A stretch of 64,000 nucleotides of DNA from the NCBI GenBank assembly GCA_000004985.1, contig GG738867.1, one strand, 5' to 3'. Positions 836-54,227 of this stretch are shown here, piece after piece. The DNA is from Naegleria gruberi (Eukaryota). Both the position numbers and the translations under genes were made by a program. The notes beneath the pieces are model-generated. The model saw only the letters and a list, made by a program, of their open reading frames with translations, was not told the origin of the DNA and searched no databases. Each line of letters starts with the position of its first letter. Position 1 is the stretch's first letter.

Positions 836-1408
836 ATTATTATTTTATGAATGTTTGTATTTTTTTGTTTTCTGTTGGAAATAGATGATGGCGCCCAAGT
901 AAAGTGGCACATGAACACGTGTTTGCACACCTTGAAGAACAAACACGAAAGTCTCGGAATTGTTGTTCATTTTGACCAAAGGGAAATTGATTCGGTGGAT
1001 CCACAATGACATCCAAGTTGTATATTAAGCTTTGTGTCCATATTCAAAATTGATTTCTTCTCATCACTTTTTATGAATTCTTAAGAGAGCATTCTAAGGT
1101 ACACAAACAAGATGTACTTGGTGTTGAACATTTAAAAAACCATTCAGTATAAGAATGTCCAAGTAAGATTGAAGTGTTATATTATTTTGATTTTTACTGG
1201 TCTTCTTTGCGTTACTCTTACGTTTAAAGTATTTCATTTACAGGTCTTTTCTGTTTTTCTTAATTGAGTGTTTTCTTTCTGTAGTTTGACGTTTTCTTCT
1301 ACTGTTTGCTTGAGAAGGGAATCCAATGTTGTTAGTTTCTTTTTAGTTTTTTCAGTTTCAATGGAGCTTGTCATTGCTTTTCAGCAATTAACATTGTGAT
1401 TGCGAATA

Positions 1409-2244
1409 TTACTTACCAATAGTTTCAAAGGATTGTATCTGAGATTTGATTGTTGTCAACTCTGATTGAATATTTTCATATAATGACTGAAATTGATCTT
1501 TAGCTTGTTGAGTGGAACTCAGTGTTGAAATCACCTTTTTGTTTTGTTCCTTTAATAAGGAACAGTTGCATTCAAGCTCAATGTTTCTTCTCTGAGAGAA
1601 ATGATAAATGAATGGAATACACTGAAACAAACCTTGATTTGTTCAAACACCACTTGTTGAGCCTCGAACTTTAGTTTAGAATCCAGTGATTCTTTCATAA
1701 GTAAATCTCTTTCTGAGGACAATTCTTTGATCCTTTCCATGTAATGTCTTTCTAACCTCTCTCTTTCTTGTTCATTCTTCTTTACTATTGAGGAGATGAT
1801 ATCCATTTCAGCTAATGATGTTGTTCTTGCTGAATCTAAATCCTTTGCGCAAAGGGATTGATATTTGGCCAGTTCTTGCTCCCTCTTATTGATGATCACA
1901 AATTGAAGTTGAAATAATTGACAATTACTTACTCTCAAATCTTGAAGTTCTTGAATCATATCAAGTAGATATTCCTTTGTTTCTCCAAACATATTTTCTG
2001 CCTTTGCAATTAATTCACTATGCAGAAGAATTGAGGAAGGCTTGTGTGTGTCATCATCGACCATTGCTGATTGTAGATGTTCCTCCTCTAATGTAGATGT
2101 TTCCATTGGTTCGGTGAAAGTTGATTCATGCTCTGAAGAAGAATACAAGCCTACTACTTCCTCTTCTGTTGCTGTTGTAGATTGATCAATAGGCTTTTCT
2201 TGTTGATTATCCTTAATTGATTCATCCATTTCTTCTTGATTCAT
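1409..2244 (-). CDS. Coiled-coil protein of about 264 aa, function unknown. Exons 1633..2244 and 1409..1591; intron 1592..1632 (GTTTGT..TCTCAG, 41 nt).
   Basis: ORF 1552..2244 and ORF 1409..1630 are in different frames. They join in-frame through a canonical 41-nt intron: ...FEQIK / RRNIELECNCSLLKEQNKK.... The sequence is heptad-like and E/K/L-rich throughout. Confidence 0.5.
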
Positions 2245-2321
2245 TTTTTTTGAAATGTAAATGGAAAAATTAAGGAGGGAAAATATAAATAATTTCTAGA
2301 ATGTTTATTAGTGTACACTTT

Positions 2322-3732
2322 TTACAAAATTGTACAGACTCCCTTATCACAATCTGCGTTCTTCGTGAAATTAGGACAACTCTTCAAATAATTTGGAACG
2401 TTGAGAGGCAGATCGTTGTGAAGAGCTACTTTAGGATTAGTTTCGAATAATTTGTTAATCTTGTGGAATTTCATATTCTTCTTCATATTTGCAAACTTGT
2501 TAGCATCTGAAATGAGTTGATCGAATAAAAAGACACAACAAACAGCAACTCTCACATATTTTTCATTCTTTTCTTCCTTTTCATGTCTATTATTACATTC
2601 ATTTGCCAAATATGAAAGAACTTTTTCATATCCATCAGCATCTTCAGTGAAAGATGTTTTCAAAGCCTTATTAATATTATGTGGATTGACAAGGAAGTGA
2701 CGTAATGTTTCATCTTCACTCATATTGTAATCTTTTTTAACGTGTTGAATGGCTCTACGATACATGGCAAAATCGTTATTTAAACCTGCTTGCCAAGTTT
2801 TCAAATAATCCAAAATAATAACAACATCAAGAACATCAATCAAAGCCTTTGCTTCATCAGCACTTGGTGAAGCATTATCTTTGCAAAATCCCTTCACAAA
2901 GGCAACAACATGTTCTCTCATGACATCATTGAATTGGAACAAATCTCTCATAATTTGAATGTTTGGACCCAAAATAGTCAAGTTTTGTTTGTATAATTCC
3001 TTCTTGTTATCAGCATCACCTCTAACTTGGATAAGTTTACCTATTGCTGTCTTGTAAGTAAATATTGTTTGGATTTGTCTTTTACCTTCCTCAATGATTC
3101 TTTCCTGTGTTATTATTGTTGTTGTGTTGTGTTGTTATTTGTTCATCATTAGAATGATTTGTTATTGTTGTTGTTATTATTATTATTATTGTTATTATTA
3201 TAATTGTTATTGGTATTGTGTTCAATATTTGTTGTAAAATATGCGTATAGTATCGTATCACATTGGAATATATGTAACAATAGTGTTGAACCAATTTGTT
3301 AAAACACAAAATTAGTAGAAAAAGTGTTTTTGTTGTTCAGTATAAAATTAGTGTTGCGAGAGTTTAGTATAATATTATTAGAAAGGAAACAAGATAATCA
3401 TTGGCAACACATTCGCAAATAATTATCAATGATCACAAGTGATAGTTTCCAATAGAAATATATAATAAAATATTCGCATCATCACAAGTGATTAGTAATT
3501 TCAACCAATTAGAATTATATAAAGCAATATATCATAAAAAACAAATTGTTGTTCATCATTTGTGTAAATTTAAATTTTACAAATTGTGTAAAACCAACAG
3601 TTATCCTTTCCAATGTCATCAAATAAAATCACTTACCAGAGCACGAGTTCCTTTCAGATCTGTCATATCACTTTTAAAAGTCTTTCCCAATTGACTGGTT
3701 TCTTCAGCATCAATATCAATCATGTCAGACAT
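2322..3732 (-). CDS. DUF1394/CYRI(FAM49)-like protein with a C-terminal CAAX box (CTIL). Exon 1 is 3637..3732, exon 2 is 2322..3104, and the 532-nt intron 3105..3636 contains a microsatellite.
   Basis: The ORF 2322..2981 frame extends upstream (QERIIEEGKRQIQTIFTYKTAIGKLIQVRGDADNKKELYKQNLTILGPN) to an AG acceptor at 3105-3109, with a TAA just upstream in frame. A candidate first exon reads MSDMIDIDAEETSQLGKTFKSDMTDLKGTRAL and ends at a GTAAGT donor. Both exons are phase 0 and both lengths are divisible by 3. The segment ALIDVLDVVIILDYLKTWQAGLNNDFAMYRRAIQ...ALKTSF resembles the CYRI/CYFIP N-terminal segment ...NDFSYYRRTLS...MLKTLS. The protein ends ...DKGVCTIL, a prenylation-type CaaX. Confidence 0.4.
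3105..3235. repeat. Imperfect (TTG/TTA/TTATT)n microsatellite.
   Basis: The repeat tgttattattgttgttgtgttgtgttgttatttg...gttattgttgttgttattattattattattgttattattataattgttattggtattgtg produces spurious low-complexity ORFs (for example 3091..3309). It lies inside the proposed long intron of the 2322..3732 gene. Confidence 0.7.
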
Positions 3733-4037
3733 GTTTAATGGAGGTAGAGTGGTGAGAGTGGATTGAATATTTTTTAACGTTGTTTTTGGATGTCTTTGAT
3801 GGTATTGTTGATGGGTGGTAATTTCAGCGTCGCTTCAATTCTTCTTCAGCCGTTGCAATGAGTTTTCTCTGTGTTTGCTTTTATGACAGTTTATTATGTT
3901 GTTTGGTCGTTTCCCGTCATTGTATCACCTTTCGCTAGTGTTGCAACAGAGCACTGGGAACTGTGAAGATTGGTTCAAAATTTCAACTCGATGGTTTATT
4001 GAGGACGAAGAGTCTTTTTGAAGGAGATGATCAGCAG

Positions 4038-7000
4038 TTACTTTTTCTTTTTGCTTGCAAGAGAGGGATAGTAATTTGATCTCTTGAGTGTATTACTTGG
4101 ATTAATAGTTTGAGTGAACATAGAGCTTGGTACAGAGCTACTACTAGAAGCAATATTGGATGTTGTTTGGGGAATGCTTTGGGAAATTGGTTCTAGATCA
4201 GTAGAGGAAGGTTGTGAAATTGGAGGAGCATTATTTACAAGCAAACTATTTAGATATTGTACCCATGATTTTGTATTATTTGCTTGTTGTGCTAGTCTTA
4301 ATTGTGGATTGCTCGTTTTCTTAATAACTAAAGTATGAGGGGAACCAACTCTTACTGTGCTTAGAGATAGATATTTTGAAAGAGGATGTAAATTGGATTC
4401 AACATGATTTCTTGTTCCTAAAGCCTCCTTCACTTCACAAACTTGCTCAGTACTATTTTGAAGGAATAAATTAACTCTTAGACAATGGGGACAATTAATA
4501 GTACAATTAAATGTTGGAAGGCGCCAATTGGTTGCATTTGCTTCCTGTTGTTTTCTGAGTGTTGGGCCTAAAAATCCAATACTACAATGAATTAAAACTG
4601 AAAATGCTGGATAAGTGTTGAAAACAGATTTGCCATAAGAATTTTCAATAAATTTGATGAGTGGAAGAAGAATTTTGCAAACTCCACTTAGGTCTGTAAT
4701 TTTTGATATAATTGTTGCGGTAACATTTGATAGGTCATCTGGTATTCCATTTTTACAAATTGTAGAAATAATTTCTTTGCAATTTTCCAGATCAATGTTA
4801 CATGTATTGGTAATAAATTGCTGAACAATATTACCTCTAATATATGAAGAAATGAAATTTGCGCCAGGGTTAGTAGTCAAACTTGTGCAATAGTTCAATA
4901 AAGTTAGAGCTTGACTATAGTTAGATGAAACAATGTCTCTTAATATTGGTTCCATGCAAGTTTGAATACTTTCATTATAAAATGTATTGAGGTAGCCAAT
5001 TACAGAAGGATAATTTTTGATGAATATCTCCTTGTTACTAAACAATATTAATAAGGCAACCATCAATCCTGGGAATGGTTCTAAGTATTTCAAAATAATT
5101 GTCACCTCATTGGGATCTGCTACTTTACAACGTTCAGCCATATATGCTGTAGTGTTGGGAGTAAATGGAATTGCAAACTCACTCATGCAACTCAGTATCT
5201 TTTGAATAAAGTCTGCATGATTTACACCTTGTTTGGTCCGTAAATAACCAAATACTTGAAAGCATAGCTCCGATATTAAGCAAGGATCATTTTGAGATTG
5301 AATAGTTTGGAAAGCATTTTCAGCAATTGATTTGTTGTTAAGGTTCAGTATGGTATATTTGAAAAATTCTTTTTTAAGGTGTTGTAAACCAAAGTTTGTT
5401 ATTAAGAATTGCCAAGATGTGTAAGAAATGTTTTTAGTAGCAATCAATACAGCCAATTTGACATCTTTGACTTTTTCAATAGTGTTCATTAGCATCTTTT
5501 CTGATAGTGAATAGGTGCTTATTAGGTCAGTAATTCTTTTGATGTTCAAAATGCTAGGAGATTGCACCTGTTTGTCAACTATCATATTGAAATATCTTAT
5601 TTTGCAGGTTTCATCCAAGTTATCCAATAATGAGCCGAATGTTCGTTTTGGTATAATTACCAAACACGCAGAAGTGTAAAATTTGCTAGCACTGACACCA
5701 GCATTTCCTGTATGCTCAACCTAGAGAATATTATTTAGAATTTGATTTAAAATAGAGTACTTACAGTTGATCTTTGATGGGGTATTTCTAGTAAAGAAGT
5801 TAAGGGAATAATTGAAGATATATCAACACGATTTAAGCGTGAAGAGAAATCACCATTTCTATCTTTGAGATTTTTCACAAAATAATCAATTTCCTTTTCT
5901 TCCATGTCATCAGAATCTACATCCTCATCATTTTCCTCATCACTGTCATCATATCTATGATAACCTCTGTAAGAATAACCATGATGATAGCCTGAATAGC
6001 TATTTAAATCTCCAGACACTTCTTTCATTAGTTGACCAATACAAAGATAAAATTCATCCCGGTTTCTATTAAAATTTTCAAGCCATTTGTAAACTCTAGC
6101 ATCAGCACCTTTTAAATTACCCACACTTATTCCATCTTTGGTGTATTTATGCTCCAAAATATGAATGATATATTTTCCTTCCCAACTAGTTAGGGTATCA
6201 TTCATATAGTCAATAACATTTTGATTTGAATCTGCACTTGGTGTTAAATGTGATGGTCCCTCGAAAAATATGTTATAAACCAGTGCTAATCTGTATCCGC
6301 TTGTTACTCTGTTAACTTTGTGTTCACAATCACAATAGAATGAAACAAATGATGTTGCATAACTAGATTTAGAGGAATAGTCATACACCACTTCCTTAGA
6401 GTTGTGTTTGACAGTTAGTTCACCTCCAGTATAAATTGATGGGAGATGCACAACTAGTGTGGCAAACATATTTTCCTCCTTTTCTGAATCTCTATGAAAT
6501 TGAAAGTGTCCATCTTCTTCATAGAGCAATAATTTGTACAAGTTAAATCCAATCTCCTTATCTCCAACACCCAATCCTTTTTTAATTTGATTTCCAACCA
6601 ATTCATCTATCATATCTTCCCAGTTTGGATTGAGTATTGCAAATTGATTTGGCTCTAATTGCCAGGTTTTTCTAACTTTTTCATCCACAATTGTTTCCTC
6701 TCCTCTGCCATAAGGTGCTTTTGCTGCAAGTTGAATTATATCATCTGCTTGTTGTTTTGTGACAAGTGGGAGTGAAACATACTTTCTTTCCACACTATTA
6801 TTTTCTGAATTGGGCACAAGTAATTGCAATCCAACAGCAGGATAAGTATCAAATTCTCCTCCCACAGAAAAACTTCCACCTGCAGTAACAGTTGGTATTA
6901 ATTCCTCTATTAATTTGTGCATTCTCCTAGTTGTATATGATGGATGATAGTCTTCTTCTTCATCAGATTCGAGTATAAAATCTTCATCGGATTCTTCCTC

Positions 7001-7453
7001 ATTTTCCTCATCTTCCTCATTTTCAGTTGTTTTGTCATTTTGGTTAATTTCTTCCTCTTCTTCCTCGTCATCACTCGAATCAATAGAAACACATTCTATA
7101 TTATTATTTACATTTTCATTATTATTTAGATTAATTGAACTTTCTGATTCCTCTGTAATATCAATAACGTTATTTCCTTCTCTTGTTTCTGTGGTTTGTT
7201 CCGAAGTCGTTTTGGCATTCTTATTTTCCTTGTCATCTCGATTTTCTTCTTCGGTATCATCCAATGCAATACTATCACCTGATTCCGATATTACATCTTC
7301 AAATGTGGGAGAACTTGTTCGATCATCTTGAATAATTTGTGGTGGTGATGAATTCAAATCCACATCACAATCTTCATCTTCTTGTTCATTTGATTCAAAA
7401 TCAATCGATTCCTCATTTATTATTTCTTGTGGTTGTTGTGTTTCATTTTGCAT
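4038..7453 (-). CDS. Large protein of about 1124 aa. The N-terminal half is acidic and contains a 2OG-Fe(II) oxygenase-like (P4H-type) core; the C-terminal roughly 560 aa are uncharacterised. Exons 5765..7453 and 4038..5720; intron 5721..5764 (GTAAGT..TCTCTAG, 44 nt).
   Basis: ORF 5747..7453 and ORF 4038..5663 join in-frame through a canonical 44-nt intron (...HQRST / VEHTGNAGVSASKFYTSACLVIIPKRTFG...). The N-terminus has D/E-rich tracts, then YKLLLYEEDGHFQFHRDSEKEENMFATLVVHLPSIYTGGELTVKH...YRLALVYNIF. This parallels the HxD...H...R facial-triad arrangement and is similar to the oxygenase core of the 26360..28913 gene (RYKEGNFFKPHMDSHF). The ATG at 7451-7453 has an A-rich upstream context. Confidence 0.5.
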
Positions 7454-22119: not shown

Positions 22120-22516
22120 TTTTTTTTGTTCTTGTTTCCCGCCAAATGTAATTACGATTTTTAAATAAATCATAAAACAACGATTATTGCAATTTTAAGG
22201 ATCAAAGTAAATGAGGGATATTTGAATTTGTGTTTTAATGAATTTTACATATCAGGTCAGTGAAACAATTCTTTTCAATGGATTGAAAGAGAATTTGTCT
22301 TTTTTGAAAAAGTTGTTGAGATAATCTCTGAAAGTTTTTGTAATCTTGTGAGAACCAAGTCTTTTGTTCGAATGGAAGAGTTGACTTGAAACGAGAGAAT
22401 TGAGTACATAGTGATTTGACTGATAAATCCTGAGAATCTGTCACAATGAGAATAAACATTTGATGAATCATTGAATAATTTCTATTCTCTATAAATTCCA
22501 AGATGCTCATCATTTC

Positions 22517-22533
22517 TAGACTAACGCTGAAGC
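22517..22533. repeat. Left terminal inverted repeat of the transposon, preceded by the target-site-duplication copy ATCATTTC at 22509..22516.
   Basis: It is the exact reverse complement of 23357..23373. Confidence 0.8.
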
Positions 22534-23356
22534 AGTGAAAGTTGGCCCAAAAAATTTTTTGTCAAAAAAATGGCCAAGTCAAGAAAAATGGGCAAAAAAA
22601 TGCAAAGTCAGAGATTTCCCTCCTTGCAAAACAGCCCGCCAACACCGTTACGAATAAAATTTGAAATAAATAGAAATTTTTCACCTTTAAATAGTGGTTT
22701 TATTGAAGATTAAAGTAATGTTTCTACCAACAACCGTATCAGAGTACCTCGTAAGCTAGTGGACAAGGATGACAAGCAACCTAGAGTGCTCCAATTCGCA
22801 TAATTCCTCAGTTAACTGGTCAAAGAATAAGGTGTAACTTCTCCAAATTCGTTGGTGGTCAACAGCAAGGATTTGTCTACTTCCATCTATGATATTCTTG
22901 CTGAAGGAAGACAACCCTTAAAACCATTTCACATTCTTCATGTTAACAACACTATGGCTACTTGTTTTCCTGCGGCACTTGGCGATGTTCTTTACAGCAA
23001 TGGAATCCATCATACAACAATTACGAATTAATTAATGGTCCACGAGATGAGTATGAAGTTTTCGAAAAGACTTTCCTTAGAGGAGAGAGGCAGAGAAAGT
23101 ACATAACAAACTACCTCCACTGTGGTAGGAAGGCGAACGAGGTGTATAGGATTGACATCATCACAAGATATTTGTTTTTGACCAATGATATGGAAGATGA
23201 CTTGGTGCCTCTGGTGCTGACTACAGTTCCGATGATGGTGTGAGTAGTGATGATGAGTAATTAATTTTTTTTTATTAAATTTAAACATTAAGCGGGGGCG
23301 CGAGTTTTTGTAACTTTGCCATTTGTTTAAGGGTCGCGAGCGACACTTTTTACCAG

Positions 23357-23373
23357 GCTTCAGCGTTAGTCTA
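23357..23373. repeat. Right terminal inverted repeat of the transposon, followed by the target-site-duplication copy ATCATTTC at 23374..23381.
   Basis: It is the exact reverse complement of 22517..22533. Confidence 0.8.
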
Positions 23374-24269
23374 ATCATTTCTCGATAGTGATCTTCTGAT
23401 ATCTTTTTAACTGGAAATTGCATTCCATTTTCATCCAATAAATGTTTGAATAGAGCAAATCTTGAAAGATGAATTAATTCTTCACATTTCTCTTGCAAAG
23501 AATGAATTTTGGATGATTTACAAGTTTCTTTGAGAAACATTTCAATAACAGACTTGCAAACTGAAATTCTGTTCGACTGTTTTGCAACAGAGAGACAGAT
23601 TCTTTTACAATTCATATAAAACCATTTCATTTTCATCAAATACGAATACAATTCCAGGATGGTCATTTCATTACACTGTAAATCATCTAAATCCAAAGTA
23701 AATTGATTAATATTTGGTGTTTTCTCTCCTAATTCCTTCAACAGCGAAATTTCATGTTGACCTCCACTCATTTCGTTTTGTAAAGCTATTTCATTAACTT
23801 GATTCATTGCTCTTGAGAAGACTGCAGACAAGAAGTTCTGCATCTCATTGAACGGTATCTTTGACATTATATTGAATGCAGAAGCATAAAAGAAAACCAT
23901 TGAAAATGATGATGAGGAACGAGAATGAATTTGTTGAGTGTCATCTTGAAGAGAGGAAAGAAAATCTTCTTTCCATTTTACTGAATCTTTCATTTGAATT
24001 AATAGAAGAAGTAAATATCTTTGGACTGAATTAATTTCAATATCTTTGAATGAGTTAATATCTCTTCCGATAGCAGTTGGGTGGTCATTGTCTGATGTTG
24101 AAGGATGGCTGTTGACATCTAGGTCTGTTAAACATAATTCTTCAGCCATTTTTTTAATGAAAACCAAAAAGGCAACCAACTGTAAGATGTATGATAGGAA
24201 GTTTTCAAATATTTTCTCACAGTTACCTTAAGATAAAAGTACTCTTTAGAAATTACATTAAAAAATAAT

Positions 24270-26153
24270 TTAATCTTGTGGAGCAACAAGTCCATTTTCC
24301 TTTGGTTTCAACAAGTATTCCAAAATTGAAGGGGTAATTTCTTCCAACAAGTCAAAGGCCTTTTGCTTATCCATGTCATTGGTTTCAACGTACCATTTAA
24401 GCTTTGGTTCAGTACCACTGTTTCTGATGGTTGCAGAAGTACCATTTTCAAAAGTGAAAGTAATCATTTGAGAAGTTGGAGTGGCAGGAAGAAGTGGCTT
24501 GTTATCCTTTTGGGCAGAATCATAGTCTTTAGTCAAATCTCTGAGAGAAGCAATCTTGAAGTGCTTTGAACTATCTCTAATACTTGGAATGAAGGTTGGA
24601 TATCCACCATTTTCAATCTTTCTGAGTTCTTCCATAACCTTGTGCAACAAGTCAGTGGATGGTGTGAAGAAGTAACGAGTCTTCATGGCAAAGAAACCAT
24701 ACTTCTTATAGATATTTTCAATTTGTTCACTCAAACGTTTAACAACACCTCCCTTGTAGTGACTGTGGGCCATTTCAGCAAAAACTGAAGCAGCTCTAAC
24801 ACCATCCTTATCCAAACTACAGTCACCAACCAAGAATCCAATTTCAACTTCATAACCTAACAAGAAAGTGTATCCATCCTTGATATATTGATCAGCTCTG
24901 TTACCAATCCATTTGAAACCAGTGAGAGTTTCATCAAACTTGAAACCTTCATGAGCAGCCATAGCTCTCAAAATCTTTGAACTGACGGTACTGGCAATCA
25001 TGACACACTTGGCGTAGTCTTCGTTTGGATGAGAAGTCTTATATTGAGTCCAAACCCAATCAGCCAACAACATGGCAATTTCGTTACCATTGAAAATTCT
25101 CCAAGATCCATCAACTTGTCTTTCAGCAACAGCCAATCTGTCAGCATCTGGATCGTTAGCCAAAATGAGAATAGCACCTTCCTTTTCACACTTGTCCATG
25201 GCAAGTTTGAGAGCACCTTTACCTTCCTCAGGATTTGGATATTTTACAGTGGTAAATTCTGGATCAGCTTCAATTTGCTCTTCAACAGGAATGCATTTTG
25301 GTAAACCATACAAATCAATAGCTCTATATGTGAAAGGAGTACCAACACCATGCATAGCAGTATATACAATTTTCTCATCGGAAATAACTGGCTTACCATT
25401 GCTGTAATTATATTTACGAATGGCTTCAAAATATTCATCAGCTTGAGTTTTGGTTGGATCTTGCAACAAGTGAGACCATGGAGACAAATCAATAACTTGT
25501 TCTTCATCACCTCCATTTCCGTCTGTCTTTAATTGTTTTCTAACTTCTTCCCAAATTGATAAATTTTGCATGATAGCAGCAGAAATGTATTCATCTTGTG
25601 GAGGAATAATTTGACAACCATTTTCCCAATATAATTTATAACCATTATCTTGCTTTGGGTTGTGTGATGCAGTAACCATGACACCAGCAATGCATCTCTC
25701 TCCACTATTACTTCTATTAATATTACTGACAGCAAAAGGAACAAATGGTGTGCATACCATTGTTCTAAACAAATGTACAGTGTATCCCTTGGAGAGGAAA
25801 ACACCAGCAGTCAAGTTTGCATATTGTTTAGAATGATGTCTGCCATCATATCCGACAACTACAGAAACTTTGCTCCTATCACTAACATCTTTTGTACATT
25901 CTTCAATGTATTTACAAACTCCTTGAGATGTTTGCAAAATAATCAATTCATTCATGCATGAAAATCCAGCAGCCATCAAACTTCTCAAGCCAGCTGTACC
26001 AAATTCAATACGCTTACATAATCTCTTTTCCAATTCAGCTACATTTCCCTGTTGGACAAGGTTTTGAATATCCTTTCTAGTCACTTCAAAAGGATCAAGC
26101 TCCAACCATTGATCGACGAGTTGTTGAATATGTTGAGGAATTGTTTGGGACAT
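24270..26153 (-). CDS. Phosphoglucomutase-2 / phosphopentomutase (alpha-D-phosphohexomutase family, PGM2-like), 627 aa.
   Basis: A single ORF. The active-site phosphoserine loop reads VTASHNPKQDNGYKLYW, and the N-terminus contains FGTAGLR. Length and architecture are typical of eukaryotic PGM2/PGM2L1. The ATG at 26151-26153 follows an A-run. Confidence 0.85.
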   Translation of the reverse strand: MSQTIPQHIQQLVDQWLELDPFEVTRKDIQNLVQQGNVAELEKRLCKRIEFGTAGLRSLMAAGFSCMNELIILQTSQGVCKYIEECTKDVSDRSKVSVVVGYDGRHHSKQYANLTAGVFLSKGYTVHLFRTMVCTPFVPFAVSNINRSNSGERCIAGVMVTASHNPKQDNGYKLYWENGCQIIPPQDEYISAAIMQNLSIWEEVRKQLKTDGNGGDEEQVIDLSPWSHLLQDPTKTQADEYFEAIRKYNYSNGKPVISDEKIVYTAMHGVGTPFTYRAIDLYGLPKCIPVEEQIEADPEFTTVKYPNPEEGKGALKLAMDKCEKEGAILILANDPDADRLAVAERQVDGSWRIFNGNEIAMLLADWVWTQYKTSHPNEDYAKCVMIASTVSSKILRAMAAHEGFKFDETLTGFKWIGNRADQYIKDGYTFLLGYEVEIGFLVGDCSLDKDGVRAASVFAEMAHSHYKGGVVKRLSEQIENIYKKYGFFAMKTRYFFTPSTDLLHKVMEELRKIENGGYPTFIPSIRDSSKHFKIASLRDLTKDYDSAQKDNKPLLPATPTSQMITFTFENGTSATIRNSGTEPKLKWYVETNDMDKQKAFDLLEEITPSILEYLLKPKENGLVAPQD

Positions 26154-26359: not shown

Positions 26360-28913
26360 ATGGAAAGAGTTTCGCCTCATGTTCATCTCTTGGCAAATAT
26401 TTGGGAAAATGAAAATTGTAAACTTCCTATCATTATTGAAAAACATAAAGAAGAAGATTTAAAATCATCGCCATTATCTTCTAAAAGAATTGATTATTTA
26501 ATTCCGAATCAGAAACTATTGATCAATTCAAATATTTATTCAATTGATTTATTAAGTAATGATGCAAATTGTGATGATAATAATAATACATCTCCAATTG
26601 ATGATGGAATTAATCATCATGATGGGAATGAATTAGAAGAAATTACTTGTCTTGATCGATTGTTTGTGTTGGAAGAGGTTTTATCGAGGGAGGAATGTCA
26701 AGATTTGATCAATGTGACTAATGAATTAGGTTATCGTTCGATTGATAGAGAATATTCGAAAGAGTATAGAAATAGTGAGAGAGTAGTGGTAACTAGTAAG
26801 AAAGTAGCAGAAATATTGTGGAATAGGATAGTGTAGGTTTTACAGTTTGGTTCATTTACTGATAAATTCGAATAGACCATTGATGAAGAAGGAAGATATT
26901 GCTAATGTGAAACCATACGGATTTGATAATAACGGGAAATGGATTCCAATAGAATTATCAGAATGTTTGAGATTTAACAGATATAAGGAAGGAAATTTCT
27001 TTAAACCTCACATGGATTCTCACTTTGTCAGAAATGACAATGAGAGAAGCATATTTACCATTCTTATTTATTTAGATGATTCTCCTTACGGTACTACCTT
27101 TTGGAAAAAGATTCCAGACGAAACAAATGAGGAACTTGCCAGCACCAAAATGAATTTCAAGAAATTATTAACAGTTCAACCAAAAGCTGGATCCATAGCA
27201 ATATTTAATCATGATATTTATCACTCTGGAGATTTTGTAAATGAAGGGTACAAATATGTTGTCAGAACTGAAATGATTTTCAAGAGAATAGATCCAGAAA
27301 GTGTATATAGACAAGATTATAGAGAAACAGCAGAATTTCAAAAAGTGAAACAATTAGTGGACGAAAGCAATCAATTAGAGAAGGAAGGAAATTTAAAGCT
27401 TTCCACCCAAAAATATATTCAAGCCCATGAATTACAAACTACAAAAGCCAACAGTATCCAAAAGGTTAACATTTCTAACAGGATTGGGCAATTACCAGAA
27501 GAAATGTTCCTTCTCATATTTTCATTTATGAAAACAGAGGAAATTTCAAACTCTTTCATCAAACTTGATAGAAACCTGAACTCTATCACAAGACACTCAA
27601 AGGTTTGGAAGGAAAGATATTGTCAAAAGTGGTCAGACAAACCCAAAGTCCCTCTCAACAAAGCAAATGGATTTAAACGAGATTATTACTATCAAATGGA
27701 TGATGACGAAATAGTTGAAGAAGGAACAATCTACTCAATGGAAAATGCAATCACCATTCAACATGAACAAACACTGGGAGATTGGTATCATGCCTTTGCA
27801 ATGAGATCTAATCAAGAAAAATTTATGGAAGTTGTATTGCTAGATTTTGTTGGAGGCAATTATAGATATGGACTTTCAAGCCAATCATTGTTTTACGTTT
27901 CGCCTGCCTCTTGTGGAATACCGAATCATCCTCATTTCTCTCTTGTGGGTTATGATTATCAGAGTATCCTTTGTGGTGATAGGTATTTTGTATCTGCTTT
28001 CCAGTGTGATGATCTTCCACTAATGGAAAGGAATGGGCAAATATTAGACATGCGTAATTTTAAAGAAATGATTACACAGCTTTACAGAGATGATCTGAAA
28101 AAGAGTATGGCTACTCCTCTATTGATTTCCATTCCAGTTGTGTGGACAGATAAACAATTATCAGTAGTTAGTACTGAACTGGTAAGTTATTTATTAATAC
28201 TGGATTAAACAGTTTATTTAAAGATTAACATGGGATTGGATGTAATATTTATTGATGAGGCAAAACTCAGGTCATTTTACTATCAGAAACCGAATTGTTT
28301 AATCATAAAATTGACAGAAAATGGAATTTATTTCATTCCAGTTAAGGAAAATGAGATGGTTAGAAAATATTATCATTTAAAAGATATGAAAAATCAAACC
28401 AGCTACCCATACCCATCAATTCTAAAAATCGCTTTCATTCCATCTGTTGACATAATTGACGAAACAGTCTTGAATGTTGAACCAATAGATATTGGAACAC
28501 ATTATAACCCAAAGATAGTTGGGAAAGAAGAAAGAGTCAAATTAGGAACAGAAATATTATTACAGGTAACAAATGCAATAGAAGAATATAAGAATTGTAT
28601 AGAAAATTGGAAAAGCAGAAATGTGACTGATAATATAATAGTTGTTGGAGAGTTTGCTCATTTGGAAAATATGAAATCCGTAGTTATTGGCCTACTCAGC
28701 AAAAATTTTCCAAATAGTTCCATTACGTATCAAGAAAATCACTTAGACAAGACGGTCAAAATTATTAACGAAAACAGTAGAAAGATGGGATATAGAGGAG
28801 GTTCTTTTGATGTTGTGGGTGGAGCAAAGATAATTTGCAGTTTGAGTAACTTTAGGGAGGATTATTATGAAAAACGTTCTAAAAAGAAAGAAAAGCGATG
28901 CACAATTGCCTAA
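26360..28913 (+). CDS. Three-module protein of about 824 aa: an N-terminal prolyl-4-hydroxylase-like 2OG-Fe(II) oxygenase, an F-box, and a C-terminal actin-related-protein (actin-fold) domain. Structure: join(26360..26832, 26876..28181, 28224..28913).
   Basis: ORFs 26360..26836, 26847..28208 and 28230..28913 join in-frame through a 43-nt intron (GTAGGT..CGAATAG, phase 2) and a 42-nt intron (GTAAGT..TTTAAAG, phase 0). The oxygenase core reads RFNRYKEGNFFKPHMDSHF...SIAIFNHDIYHSGDFVNEGYKYVVRTEMIF (HxD...H...R). The F-box reads LPEEMFLLIFSFMKTEEISNSFIKLDRNLNSITRHSKVWKERYCQKW. The actin-fold signatures are MEVVLLDFVGGNYRYGL (phosphate-1-like DxxGxxxxxG), TELINMGLDVIFIDEAKLRSFYYQKPNCLIIKLTENGIYFIPV (compare actin [42 protein letters not shown]) and a C-terminal GGSFDVVGGAKIICSLSNF (compare actin WIGGSILASLSTF). 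Confidence 0.5.
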
Positions 28914-47817: not shown

Positions 47818-50654
47818 CTACTCAGAGAATAGTGAATAATTATTCAAGTCAAGAGTTTTACAAGCAAGTGATAACTCTTGTTGCTGGTTAAGAAGAGCAA
47901 TTTCGTCATTGTCTTTCAAATCTTCAAGACTGTGAATTGCACACAAGTTCTCTTTTAACCTTATAAACTCCAAGCTTCTGTCATTAAGCTTAATTTTCAA
48001 CAATTCTATCAAATCAGAAATATTTCGAATATTGAGAGAAATCGACACAACAGCTCCTAAATCACATTCGTATAAGTAAGCAAATATTCTTCTTACACGA
48101 TTTTGAAGTTTCAAATGTGGTACAATATTAGAAAGCTCAATGACACACGAACCTTCTGTTTTCATGGCCCAAAAAACTCTCGAATTGTTTTCTTCAACAA
48201 TCAGAGAGTAGTCAATTAGAGGAAGAACATACGAGTTCACAATTGCATAACAAAAACCACCTCCAGTAACTCCAAAACCAATTCTGTCAGTTATATCAAC
48301 AGGAGGAAGGTACTGTTTTGACATTTTTGTGCCATCGGATTTGCACTCAATAGTCATTAACCCAGTTCTCAAACAAAAGGAAATAGTTTTGTTTCTAATA
48401 TCATCTTTGTCAACGTTTTCGGATGTGCAACCCATGAACAAGAATTCCAAATTTCCTTTTCTTTCCAGTATTCCTAGCTCGATATACCCAATCGTGAACT
48501 TATTCAAGGAAGCATTCAATGGAATGCCATTAGTTGAAATGGACACTTTAGAACTGGATCCAGATTGGATAAATTTCTCATTGCTTGTGCTTTCATTCCC
48601 TTTCAGGGTCTGGTCTGTTAACTGTTGTGATACATTTTCTAAATAGTGGTGAATACTTATTCCATGTTTTCTCATCTCTAAGCAGGTGAAATTGCCATTT
48701 TCAATATCTATATCATGAGATACGTGATTTTCATTACGAAAACACTGGAAACAAATCTTCTTATTGCAAGTTTTACATACATAATGCCAAAAATTACAAG
48801 AGCAAGAGCCTAAACATGTCCCATAGTATGAAGAACTAATCAGAAGAGGATATTCTTGATTGAAATCTTCTAATAATTCCTTAATTCTTATAGCTAGCTC
48901 AATCTTCTTTTTAGCATTATCGTCGTTAGAGGTACGATATCTGTATATTGTTTCTTCTGCTCTGTAATTGAAACATGTTTGGAAAGTTTTTTCTAATTGA
49001 TGAGGTTGTGCCAACTCAATTGCTGATTTAGTGAATTCTATTTCAATACTTGAAATAAATGATGAAAGAACTTGGAAAGGAAGGTAAGGTATACACAAGG
49101 CAGCAATTTCCAACCACTTATTACAAGAAGGGTGCTCCCTCCACAATAGTACACATTGTGTAAGGAAATTTCTTTGCGCAAACAATTTACGTGCCTTAAA
49201 GCTTTTACATAAAAGATTCCATAAGAATTCGCCAATGAAACTCTTGTTGTTAGCCTTGGAAATCTTTGATTCCTCACAGAAAATTCGAAGATCTGAATCT
49301 AAGATAGAGGAAATAACAAGTTGGACTGAATTGTGACTATGTAAGGCTTTTGTAAGAATTTGAAGGATTAAGGAGAATTTTTCAGTTTCTTCACTTGTCA
49401 ATCTTTCAATATTCTTATTGAAAGAAGAAAATTGAGAGGCCACCATTTGAATTCCATCATTTTCACTGACAAAGGAGTTTAAATAATCCTTTTCATTAAT
49501 CCAACTATTGATAATATTTAAACTTCTAACTGAAATTTTCATTGATTTCATGCAAGCGGCTGACAACAAAGCAATAAATGAGTCGTTACATTTCGATATA
49601 TCATTATCATTCTTGTTTTCTATCATATTATCCCAGGTTGTAACAATTGGGTGTTGTAACAATTCTCTTGCTTCCAACCTGGAATCAGCATCGCAAACCA
49701 TCAACTTCATTACCTGCAAACTAGCTTTATCTGTCAAAAGTCTTGCAAGAATTTGTTGATAAGTCTTTACAAACCATTGATTACTTTGGACATTTATCAA
49801 CGAATTAATATCTAATTTTCCGTTTACCATTATTGCTAATTTTGCAAGGTTAGTTCTGTAATCTTTTTCTGGTAAACTTGCTAATACTTGGACAAAGATA
49901 ATTCCCAAAGAATAGACGTCCACTTTGGGAGTGTAGCTTTTTGTAAAAACTTCAGGAGCTTGATAGAAAACATCTCCAGCAATAGTTTTTGCCTTTGATT
50001 GATGAGCCTGTAATTGAGTGCCAACTCCAAAATCACCAATTTTAACTTCAACCTTATCCAATCCTTCCAACAGAGAATTTGTTAAAAGACTAGCATCATA
50101 TTTAACCATAATATTGTTTGGTTTTAAATCTTGAGTAAAATAGTTTTTTAAAAAGTTGATAAAGAAAACATACCTCTATGAATGATTTTCAACTCGTTCA
50201 ATTCTTTCAAGACATGTAACATTTTAATGAACCATTGGAAAGCAACTTTGGCAGAAACTTTGATATTTTCCTTTTTTAGTCGTTCTAAAATTTGATTCAA
50301 GTTTCCTTGACAAACTTCCATTCTAATACACAAAAACACCTTACTTATATCCTCTACTTTGGTAATTGGAGAAGTTTTCAAGAGTTTATAGTCATAAATC
50401 TTTACTATATTTGGATGTTCACATTCTTGAGCCAATTTAACTTCTTTTATAATTGAACTTGAATTTGTTTCAGACTCTTCAATAACTTTGAGTGCAAATT
50501 CTTCATTCGAATTAACGTCACGAATCAAATAAACAGATCCAAAATTACCACTTCCTAACGTATCAATCAGATAATACTTTTTATCTGCATAATTAATAAC
50601 CTTATAGGTTGATTTGGTGGTACTGGTCGACTCTTTTGATTTCGATAAACCCAT
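47818..50654 (-). CDS. N-myristoylatable Ser/Thr protein kinase with a large C-terminal region containing a Cys/His zinc-finger-like cluster (divergent UBR-box-like), about 923 aa. Exons 50174..50654 and 47818..50129; 44-nt phase-1 intron (GTATGT..CTCAAG).
   Basis: The protein starts MGLSKSKE... (Gly2, Ser6 myristoylation context). Kinase motifs are LGSGNFGSVYLIRD, FALKVIE, IIHR / DLKPNNIMV (split by the intron at the same codon position as its paralog), KIGDFG and APEVF. The C-terminal cluster is ...CLGSCSCNFWHYVCKTCNKKICFQCFRNENHVSHD.... Confidence 0.7.
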
Positions 50655-51000: not shown

Positions 51001-54000
51001 ATGGGTATTCTCAATAGCAAGGAAAGTCTTCCCAAGACTACTACCACCATCAGTAACACAATTGCAGAGATTGAAAAGAAGAAAGCTGTACCATCAAAAA
51101 AAGAAGAAACAGTTTCGTTTAGATGTTTCAATACAAATTGGTCTCTCATACGATCATTGGGAGAAGGATATTTTGGAAAAGTATATGAAGCAAAAGATTT
51201 GACTACTGGTTCTCAATTTGCTATCAAAATTGTGAGATTTGAAATTGCAAATGAGGAGTTAGCTCGAAGAGAAGTTGAATTTTCCAAGAATATTGATAGT
51301 TCAAACGTTGTCAAAATCTTTGATAGTGAAGTGATGGACAAGGATCCAACCACTGGTCTTCCATCGAATGGTTGCAAGTTTTTGGTTATAAAGATGGAGC
51401 TTTGTCAAGGAAACTTGAATGACATTCTAATTCAATTAATAAGTAGCAATCAAACTCTTAGAATTGATGTTGTTTTTGTTTGGTTTTTCAAAATGCTTGA
51501 TGTTTTGTGCGACTTTGAACAAAATAATTTAATTCACAGGTAAGTTTGAGCAGGTAATTGAAAGAAACTTGAATTGTTTCATACAGAGATTTGAAACCAT
51601 CTAATATAATGATAAAGTATGAAGGTTCTTCCCCAACAGAGTTTGAGAAAATTCAACTCAAGATTGGAGACTTTGGATTGGCAAAGAAAATGAATGGGAA
51701 CTATTCTAATGTTGGTACTTCAATATTTAAGGCTTTGGAAATTATTGAACAAGAGGAGTATGACACAAGAGCTGATGTTTATTCTCTTGGAATGATACTG
51801 TTGCAAGTTAGTTTATTGATTTCTGAGGGTACACTTGCTGAAAAAATGTTAATTATTGTATCTAAATATGAAACAGGTCCCTATGAAACTTCTTTATGGC
51901 GTATTTTACAAGATAACAAAAGATTGAATGAATTCTTTGGAGATGTTTTTTATGATTTAACTGATCCAGGTACAAAAGAACTACTCAAACAAATGATTTG
52001 TGTTGTTGAAAAAAGATTGAAAGCTTCAGAGTTACAAAATCATCCAATTGTAAAGACTTGGAAGAAAGTATTAGCTTATGGACCAAACCATAGAGAAATT
52101 GATTTGTTTGAGTTCAATAACGCACCAAACGGTAATTTGGTAATCCTTGGGCTCGTTCCATTGATCAAGATTGTTTCCAAGCCGTCTGTAGTTTTAAGGG
52201 CCTTGTATGTTCTAGAAAGAATATTTTCTGATAGTACTAAACTGAAAGAGAGATCAGAGTATTTTATTATTAATGGTGGTATAGAGGTGGTTATTGGATA
52301 TGTCAATTCACTTATTAAAGCACTAGTACCAAACGATAAGTCATCCAATTCGAAACCAAAAAAGGAGTTGATTGAAGAGATAAAATCACACACTATTAGT
52401 AGTTTGATCACCACTAATGCATCTATTAATGACAAGGTTAAGACAGGATGGAATTTGTCAGTCAAATTAATTGCTTCAATATTGGAAAATAGTGACAATT
52501 TACCTTCTGAAAGACTTCGATTATTGAGTGCATCACTTAGAAGAAGTGGATTGTTTGATCTAATATCATCTTTGAAAAAGATTGATGATAAGGAAAAGCT
52601 GGCAGTTGAAGCAGTTGTTCCTGTTGTAAAGATTATCTCATTCATGTGTAAACACAATATAAGCGTAAGAAGCAATTATGCAAAGAAAAGTTTCATCGTT
52701 GCACTTTTGTCATTATTGGTATCAGATGGAATGGACGAGTTGAAAGGTGACATTATCGAAACAATTGCTCTTGTTGTTCCTTACATTGATGGAAGTGATG
52801 AAAAACTTGAGTTACTTGGTTTTTTTAAAAACTACTTTTTGTCACTTTCAATGCAAATGGCTGAACCTAGCTGTTTGATAGCTAATGAACAAGTATTTGA
52901 ACAATACATTGACAAACAAGATGATCCCGTTGAAGGGTTATTATTGAGAAGCAAACTTGCAATGATGGTTTCAGATTACAAACAAATTTTAAGTAGATCG
53001 TACTATGGATTATGCTCTAATGTTGATAGATCAGATGACCATATCAAGATGTGGTGGTTTAGATGTAAAACATGTTTTGCAAATGATCCATCTCTTGGTT
53101 GCTGTTTAACATGTGGCTATAAATGTCACCTTGGTCATAATTTGTCTCTTCAATATTCATCATTTTATTGTGACTGCCATGTAGGTGAAGAAACAATACA
53201 AGGACACACATGCCAATGCAAACCTAGTCAGGGATCCTTATTACCTCACTTGTCCTCCTTCAAATTGACTAGTCCAATTTCCGGTTTTGTTTCTGAAGGA
53301 TTACTTCTTTGTTTAAAGGAACAGGATCAAGACAACCATTCTGATTTTACAATCATTAATTTTGGGGAAGAATCAACAGCAATCTCCAACCAACCAATAG
53401 TTTCTCTCAATAAGGTAAACGAAGCAGAAAGAGAAGAAACCATTGGCTATTTTTCAATTAAAGTCCTTTCCACTGAGTTCGACGACTTGAAGATTGGTAT
53501 TAGCACTTCAGATTCCAAGTCCATAGAAAAAATTACTGAGATAGACACAAATAACAGTATTACATATGATTTATCAAATGGTAATTTAATCATTGGAAAA
53601 AACTCTTTCGTTTATGGACCAGAGGGATACTCAACGTGTACTGTTGGCTTTGGTATAACAAACATGGGTAGAATTTATGTCATGTTTGATAGTATGGCAC
53701 TGCCACTAATCACTCATCAAACGCTGAATGATGGAAATGTTTTTGCTGTTATCAGAGTGGCTGGAACAAGTATTCTGAAATTCTCTTGTGATACTCCGAT
53801 CATAGACGCCCCACAAACTATTTCTTTTACATTAAAACCAGTGGTAAAAAAGGAGGTTGACCTTGATACCAAAGCTAATGACGAGATTGTGAATACTGAA
53901 TCAAATGTTAGAGTTGAATACTCTGTTTCTCAGAATACCTCTGCTAAAGAACAGTTGAACAGCAACTCTTCATCAACAGGTCCGATTATTGAGAAGAAAA

Positions 54001-54227
54001 TCAAGGTAAGAAGATACGGAAAGAGCAAGGGAGGAGTTTTACTTACTTTAACTCCTGATCATAGTAAAGATACAATTCTTGATCTTGCAAGAACGAAACT
54101 GAAAGAGCCATCAATTGTTTCTCTTAGAGACGAAGAATGGATTGAATATGATTGTTTCCAAGATTTTGTTCAGAATAATGTGTATCAGGCGTTGACCAAA
54201 GAAGATGAAGATAAGGAAGAGTTGTAA
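51001..54227 (+). CDS. N-myristoylatable Ser/Thr protein kinase with a C-terminal UBR-box-like zinc finger, about 1059 aa. It is a paralog of the 47818..50654 gene. Structure: join(51001..51539, 51587..54227).
   Basis: The protein starts MGILNSKE.... Kinase motifs are LGEGYFGKVYEAKD, FAIKIV, LIHR / DLKPSNIMI (47-nt phase-1 intron, GTAAGT..ATACAG) and KIGDFGLAKK. The C-terminal cluster is YGLCSNVDRSDDHIKMWWFRCKTCFANDPSLGCCLTCGYKCHLGHNLSLQYSSFYCDCHVGEE, which fits the UBR-box pattern (C..RC.TC...C..C....H.GH....CDC). Confidence 0.7.

Follow-up and report, generated by a model that had tools for sequence, protein, structure and literature searches.

A non-autonomous DNA transposon of a possibly new superfamily, probably recently inserted into an open reading frame of Naegleria gruberi

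Introduction

Among the superfamilies of DNA transposons that leave an 8-bp target-site duplication (TSD), hAT is the commonest, but P and Novosib elements, and a part of the MULE and Merlin elements, make duplications of this length as well. Typical hAT elements combine 8-bp TSDs with termini of the form YARNG (PMC3014272). Zisupton duplicates 8 bp of its target and Kyakuja, of the KDZ lineage, 7 bp; Kyakuja has CA..TG termini and lacks terminal inverted repeats (TIRs) (PMC12730594). For non-autonomous elements, Repbase bases the class on the length of the TSD together with an alignment of terminal positions 1-11 (PMC4455052). Here we analyze an 857-bp element in a 64,000-nt stretch of the genome of Naegleria gruberi NEG-M (contig GG738867.1; hereafter the window), which a first-pass annotation had described as a hAT-like transposon. 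Our reading, to which we give a probability of about 0.7, is that the element arrived by a recent cut-and-paste insertion, that it is non-autonomous and that it belongs to an unclassified, possibly new, superfamily with 8-bp duplications, whose protein is DDE-like and distantly related to the domain DUF6589.

The Ds elements of the hAT superfamily that arose from Ac by internal deletion (Ds-del) are a close parallel. They have short TIRs, subterminal repeat clusters and an 8-bp TSD, and they keep both ends after internal deletion of the transposase gene (PMC3260210). The element described here has all of these features and likewise disrupts a host open reading frame (ORF). It differs from them in its terminus, TAGAC rather than YARNG, and in its parental protein family, in which neither a hAT domain nor a BED finger is found. 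Naegleria genomes have unusually few transposons, which by published estimates make up 0.1-3% of the sequence, and few repeats have been classified (PMC6125883; bioRxiv 10.64898/2026.06.24.734286; PMC12344493), and we found no literature that names Naegleria transposon families.

Results

Perfect ends and an 8-bp duplication delimit the element

The element has a G+C content of 38.5%, compared with 32.8% for the window, and its features are listed in Table 1. The two TIRs are complementary at all 17 positions and the flanking 8-mers, both ATCATTTC, are identical at all eight, exactly as the first-pass annotation had claimed. Besides one inverted repeat inside a head-to-head pair of paralogous kinase genes, this is the sole perfect inverted repeat of at least 17 nt within 5 kb in the window, where first-order Markov simulations predict 0.15 such pairs. 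The probability that an 8-bp duplication exactly abuts the TIRs by chance is ∼3.7e-5. Subterminal repeats, also reported earlier, are found at both ends as AAATGG(C)CAAGTCA-like motifs on the left and an inverted copy on the right, and they are putative binding sites of the transposase.

No further copy of the 17-nt TIR was found in the window at up to three mismatches (0.06 expected by chance). Metagenome and viral contigs yielded only single-arm chance matches to it, with no further similarity around them.

Table 1. Features of the element and of the open reading frame that it interrupts (positions in the window).
Feature	Position	Strand	Basis or remark
Left TSD copy, ATCATTTC	22509-22516	.	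Identical to 23374-23381
Whole non-autonomous element	22517-23373	+ (sense of the transposase remnant; host ORF on -)	Perfect TIRs and TSD
Left TIR, TAGACTAACGCTGAAGC	22517-22533	+	17/17 to 23357-23373
Left subterminal repeats, AAAAATGGCCAAGTCAAG, AAAAATGGGCA, AAATGCAAAGTCAGAG	22564-22613	+	Repeat families D10 (direct), I2 and I11 (inverted)
Putative start of the transposase gene, 47-codon ORF MAKSRK...NSGFIED*	22570-22713	+	ORF end GFIED opens the tblastn match to P0121 residues 17-44
Remnant of a P0121-like protein (N-terminal ∼200 aa) with frameshift and internal deletions	22696-23004	+	STNNRIRVPRKL, NFSKFVG, SKDLSTSI.DILAEGRQ, MATCFP..LG.VLYSNG
Putative C-terminal tail remnant, GRRTRCIGL ... 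SGADYSSDDGVSSDDE	23131-23260	+	TAA at 23258-23260, then A+T-rich 3′ region
Right subterminal repeat, AAACAAATGGCAAAGTTACAAAAA	23305-23328	-	Pairs with the repeats of the left end in inverted families I2 and I11
Right TIR	23357-23373	-	Reverse complement of the left TIR
Right TSD copy, ATCATTTC	23374-23381	.	Identical to the left copy
Host ORF, upstream part, 256 codons	23382-24149	-	ATG at 24149; frame, codon usage
Host ORF, downstream part, 93 codons and stop	22235-22516	-	Shares the frame of the upstream part only once the element is exactly removed
ORF as present, 256 native and 117 element codons (…HYREMIRLTLKPGKK…), then stop	23028-24149	-	ORF list

A defective transposase gene lies between the repeats

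The element contains no intact transposase gene and no ORF longer than 93 aa, and none of its six-frame translations matches a Pfam model. We joined the open stretches of all six frames into one polyprotein and searched it against a protein collection. The single match (E 6.5e-6) was to XP_002668159.1 (P0121), a 681-aa “predicted protein, partial” of N. gruberi that comes from a 2.5-kb scaffold. In a tblastn search of the window with P0121, residues 17-197 aligned to the element in three collinear pieces and two frames (combined E 1e-17, 45-75% identity), interrupted by an in-frame stop and internal deletions. The 47-codon ORF that leads into this match is probably the remnant start of the transposase gene. 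Nearer the right end, two collinear matches were found to the acidic tail encoded at L024, the locus of a relative described below (KRTDFIGLPDS ... SSSDYCSDGESTDTD); they are weak and individually not significant. The C-terminus of another relative, P0122, is of the same kind (GRTDFNGV ... SSDSDY).

Judged by these alignments, the element is an internal-deletion derivative that has lost the central 400-500 codons of the gene. Its divergence from P0121 makes that protein a cousin rather than the parent. By its TIRs and TSD and by the frameshifted, internally deleted gene between them, the element is a non-autonomous class II (cut-and-paste) TIR transposon, and in this respect the first-pass annotation was right.

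A HMMER search of 1.84 billion representative proteins returned only three strong relatives of P0121, namely P0122 (881 aa, found in two metagenomes), P0123 (704 aa, metagenomic) and P0124, a C-terminal fragment from N. gruberi (XP_002668292.1). Intact relatives of the element’s gene encode proteins of 700-880 aa. No relatives were found in GTDB genomes or in IMG/VR, and a search of PHROGs gave no match. One of the samples with P0122 also contains a Naegleria-like phosphoglucomutase (PGM) contig.

In the metagenomic contig L024 the gene for P0123 (473-2587), with the acidic-tail ORF extending to 2897, is the sole gene between two 16-nt TIRs, CTAGATCGCGGGARGT, which start with TAGA (264-279 and 2996-3011). 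Three CAAGTCRAG repeats occur at the left end of this locus and a palindromic AAAGTCGA pair lies inside the right end. An alignment of its 5′ 200 nt with the 5′ end of the element takes in the TAGA terminus, the CAAGTC repeats and, ahead of the ORF, a CCGTTAC motif. This arrangement and the 5′ alignment tie the protein family to ends of the element’s type and make P0123 the presumptive transposase of the family.

The CCGTTAC motif, or its complement GTAACGG, is found just upstream of the transposase-like ORF at 22645-22651 in the window, at ∼412 in L024 and three times at 361-430 in L022, one of the loci of P0122. It may serve as a promoter element or as a binding site. The gene for P0122 is intact (L022 284-3118; also L023) and has the same neighbors in two independent metagenomes, a carboxyl-transferase fragment and a BTB/pentapeptide gene. 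No TIRs were detected at L022, and the locus may hold an immobilized or domesticated copy.

The element interrupts an orphan reading frame

Removal of the element together with one copy of the TSD (22517-23381) joins the two parts of the host ORF in frame and restores an ORF of 349 aa on the minus strand, with the junction reading ...EDHYREMMSILEFIENR.... The codon-usage log-odds of the upstream part is +0.18, where confirmed genes of the window range from 0.15 to 0.42 and the five other frames are all negative. By the same measure the downstream part is the top of its six frames. As estimated from base composition, the probability of 375 open codons by chance is roughly 1e-12 at 33% G+C. The restored protein contains no Pfam domain and has no relatives in a collection of 5.8 billion proteins. 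The host ORF is an orphan, and, as this collection includes annotated proteins of N. gruberi, we infer that it is unannotated. The earlier claim of an insertion into a coding exon is subject to a caveat, for it is by length and codon usage that this orphan frame appears to be coding.

The host ORF is located between the genes for PGM and p25-alpha. In Naegleria lovaniensis this interval, 22174-24269 in the window, is occupied by an unrelated, conserved coiled-coil gene of ∼670 aa, which Willaertia magna and a metagenomic Naegleria likewise have next to PGM, on its downstream side (loci L001 11953-14006, L027 7959-10053 and L026 3179-3313). We found no trace of it in the 64-kb window. Because the gene at this position is unrelated in N. 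lovaniensis, Willaertia and the metagenomic Naegleria, no empty-site orthologue can be demonstrated.

The perfect TIRs, the perfect TSD and the undecayed host frame, whose 93 downstream codons are still open (chance probability ∼7e-4), argue that the insertion is recent, which agrees with the first-pass annotation. From the degenerate interior one can conclude that the non-autonomous lineage is old, but not that this insertion is.

The same 865 bp could instead be an introner-like intron, in which case the host mRNA would lose most of the element by splicing and the gene would not be knocked out. In host orientation there is a donor-like site, CCTG/GTAAAAAG, 20 nt inside the upstream end (23350-23373, minus strand), and the last A of the TIR makes up an AG with the first G of the TSD (…GTCTAG/AAATG; 22516-22517). 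Splicing between the two would add 27 nt to the mRNA, in frame, free of stops and coding for IRLTLKPEM. However, the candidate is 837 nt long and has a weaker donor, whereas the two real introns identified in the window measure ∼45 nt and have GTAAGT and GTATGT donors; moreover, the TIRs, the TSD and the transposase remnant account for the sequence without splicing. We regard an intron as very improbable. A canonical intron was rejected, as no offset allows the GT..AG removal of exactly 865 nt.

The structure might also be a chance inverted repeat or an assembly artefact, for which nothing speaks except that a single copy was examined. The expectation of ∼0.15 perfect 17-nt inverted repeats in a window, to be multiplied by the 3.7e-5 of an abutting 8-bp duplication, the exact restoration of the frame over 93 more codons and the homology of the interior to a gene that lies between similar ends elsewhere make this scarcely credible, and we take it as effectively refuted.

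The protein family matches no Pfam transposase model

Proteins were compared with Pfam by hmmscan at E <= 10 for P0121 and E <= 0.1 for P0122, P0123 and P0124. None of the four matched a hAT model (BED finger, hAT RNase-H or hAT dimerization domain), and none matched the models for P, MULE (PF10551), KDZ (PF18758), IS1595/Merlin, piggyBac, Harbinger or other transposases. At the sensitivity of sequence-profile comparison, the full set of PDB sequences, queried by sequence and by profile, gave no transposase and nothing else of relevance. The PDB includes hAT transposases such as Hermes.

The first-pass annotation took the element for hAT-like. On this reading it would be a non-autonomous hAT element, moved by a hAT transposase that forms a hairpin on the flanking DNA and leaves an 8-bp duplication. 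The 8-bp ATCATTTC duplication, the 17-bp TIRs, a terminus starting with TAG and the subterminal repeats are all as expected of hAT, and a very divergent hAT-like enzyme would fit the predicted helical region that separates the second D from the E and the G..H motif in the position of the hAT CxxH motif. An 8-bp TSD is not exclusive to hAT, though, being found in Zisupton as well, and the terminus TAGAC agrees with YARNG at four of five positions, the fifth base being C rather than G; the terminus at L024 is TAGAT. The proteins of the intact relatives are without a hAT match in Pfam, the N-terminus is without a BED-type Cys/His pattern and the searches of PDB sequences failed to bring up a hAT enzyme or any other transposase. 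In addition, the two D motifs are ∼130 aa apart in the P0121 family, compared with ∼70 aa in Hermes and Ac. An origin from hAT thus appears rather improbable, and the assignment of the element to hAT is not supported.

The element could also derive from a highly divergent member of another superfamily with 8-bp duplications, be it Zisupton/KDZ, P, Novosib or a MULE or Merlin variant. KDZ transposases have the motifs DANF ... DIxCQ ... PxFH and P-element transposases FDEM ... SDxGxxNQ ... DTPH, and in the latter enzymes a helical insertion separates the second D from the E. The order D-N-x-E ... GDQ ... P/G-x-[FW]-H in our family loosely recalls both, and its motifs may resemble SD..NQ / DxxH / D.VE.FF of P elements; we take these likenesses as a lead and not as a test. 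P elements further share the 8-bp duplication and the subterminal repeats, but the P0121 family has neither a THAP domain nor a match to Tnp_P_element. Zisupton resembles the present element in being a TIR element with an 8-bp TSD (PMC12730594) and in having a large single transposase, and differs in its KDZ domain and CxC clusters, neither of which was detected in the P0121 family. More generally, matches to PF18758 and to the P-element, MULE and IS1595/Merlin models are missing, no THAP or CxC cysteine clusters are visible, and the CA..TG termini of Kyakuja, without TIRs, are unlike TAGA..TCTA here. We consider such an origin unlikely. Membership in hAT or in any other named superfamily is not established and, at the sensitivity of profiles, is contradicted.

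A distant link to DUF6589

Ten weak matches (E 1e-4 to 1e-3) were obtained with phmmer in a shared, DUF6589-like N-terminal region. Only one of them, P0134, spans the whole domain, and it matches DUF6589 (PF20231) at 3.8e-49. Alignment of the four Naegleria-type proteins with P0134 by hhalign gave a probability of 92.7% (E 4.2e-7) over 467 columns, in which the motifs [YS]DN.E, GDQ, G.[WF]H and [NV]DE..E are aligned; DN.E is conserved in 10 of the 11 sequences that cover its site. The likeness to DUF6589 thus extends over ∼470 columns, the four motifs and a helical N-terminal region (LG..L...G......ID.L...G...SY.T). P0121-P0124 fall under the Pfam threshold for PF20231, and only P0134 and the protein of locus L028 match it.

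In the second of two AlphaFold2 (AF2) models, the first D lies on a predicted beta-strand (220-229) that is followed by a second strand, at low confidence. The motifs in this order, with the first D on a predicted strand and a helical stretch, likewise at low confidence, separating the second D from the E, would fit a DDE transposase into which a helical domain is inserted. Enzymes of hAT and P elements are generally built in this way.

We found no papers that describe DUF6589 as a transposase or that characterize it. P0134 lies at the end of its contig. The one DUF6589 locus with both flanks, L028, has no clear TIRs; its flanks contain only ambiguous inverted repeats of 13-16 nt (1103-1149 / 3929-4169). 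The DUF6589 gene at this locus (1280-3917) was called as two ORFs of 369 aa and 490 aa, which suggests an intron or a frameshift.

The insertion lies in a core part of the genome

The first-pass annotation had also taken the window for a transposon-active accessory part of the genome. Long ORFs are densely packed in it, and a Pfam scan of the 40 largest of its 42 ORFs of at least 150 aa identified phosphoglucomutase, p25-alpha, MIF4G/MA3, 5-formyltetrahydrofolate (5-FTHF) cyclo-ligase, WD40, TLC-domain, PTEN-C2, kinase, RGS, acyl-CoA oxidase, P450 and HEAT-repeat genes, and no transposon proteins. N. gruberi XP_002677395.1 is identical to the PGM ORF of the window (24273-26153, minus strand), and the N. 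lovaniensis protein has 85% identity to it. N. lovaniensis shares the gene order MIF4G, 5-FTHF ligase, WD40, PGM, X, p25-alpha, hydrolase, and the window contains no second TIR-like structure. With housekeeping genes, a gene order shared with N. lovaniensis and no other TIR-like structure or transposon protein, the accessory-region claim is unsupported; the insertion site is a core, syntenic part of the N. gruberi genome.

Two further gene pairs were noted in the window. The paralogous protein-kinase genes mentioned above lie head to head at 47818-50654 (minus) and 51001-54227 (plus), each split by an intron of ∼45 nt (GTAAGT...CAG and GTATGT...AAG). They contain an imperfect inverted repeat of 65 nt and a perfect one of 20 nt (50295-50314 / 51401-51420), and the plus-strand copy has an additional UBR-box match. 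Two ORFs for 2OG-Fe(II) oxygenases (PF13640) are found 20 kb apart, at 5747-7453 (minus) and 26847-28208 (plus). The second occupies the place of the annotated WD40 gene of N. lovaniensis, so that local content differs somewhat despite the shared order.

Discussion

The observations are accounted for by the following course of events. A parental transposon would have encoded a protein of 700-880 aa with a putative DDE triad, in which a helical insertion sets the second D apart from the E. The element arose by internal deletion, in the manner of Ds from Ac, and retains the 17-bp ends, the subterminal clusters, a degenerate 5′ part of the gene (∼200 aa) and the last ∼40 codons. Having lost the catalytic core, it would depend for its movement on a full-length relative at another site of the genome, acting in trans. 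An 8-bp staggered cut at integration would have produced the ATCATTTC duplication. The insertion splits the orphan ORF of 349 codons, whose product is now truncated after 256 native residues.

Several points weigh against this reading. At L024 the 8-mers that flank the TIRs have just 5 of 8 letters in common, which leaves the copy in the window as the only record of an 8-bp duplication. Catalogues of repeats may already list the family, perhaps under hAT because of its ends, and deeper profile or structure methods might yet place its protein in a known superfamily. As a profile match, the link to DUF6589 is moderate, and DUF6589 itself has no known function. The AF2 models have a pLDDT of 40 and 49, and fold searches with them gave only generic helical matches; an RNase H fold and a DDE enzyme are what the motifs suggest, rather than what a structure proves.

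We put forward tentatively, and with less than even confidence, that the element and its relatives form an unclassified superfamily with TAGA...TCTA termini, CAAGTCRAG repeats, 8-bp TSDs and a DDE-like transposase distantly related to DUF6589 (XP_002668159, XP_002668292, P0122 and P0123). If this is true, the fungal-type DUF6589 domain would receive its first functional assignment, as a transposase, and the family, to judge by the perfect ends and the undecayed host ORF, would still be active in the transposon-poor genome of N. gruberi. The DDE reading, if true, would add a lineage to the eukaryotic cut-and-paste transposases and would bear on the annotation of DUF6589.

As a matter of method, the locus cautions that an 8-bp duplication and short TIRs are insufficient for a hAT label, and both this label and the description of the window as an accessory region should be dropped. 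The enzyme family lies outside the Pfam transposase models and is nearly absent from public protein space, with DUF6589 as its only detectable kin. For the biology of N. gruberi, a fresh insertion means that at least one DNA-transposon family is mobile, or was very recently, in the reference strain, and it provides a concrete locus for tests of polymorphism among strains or haplotypes.

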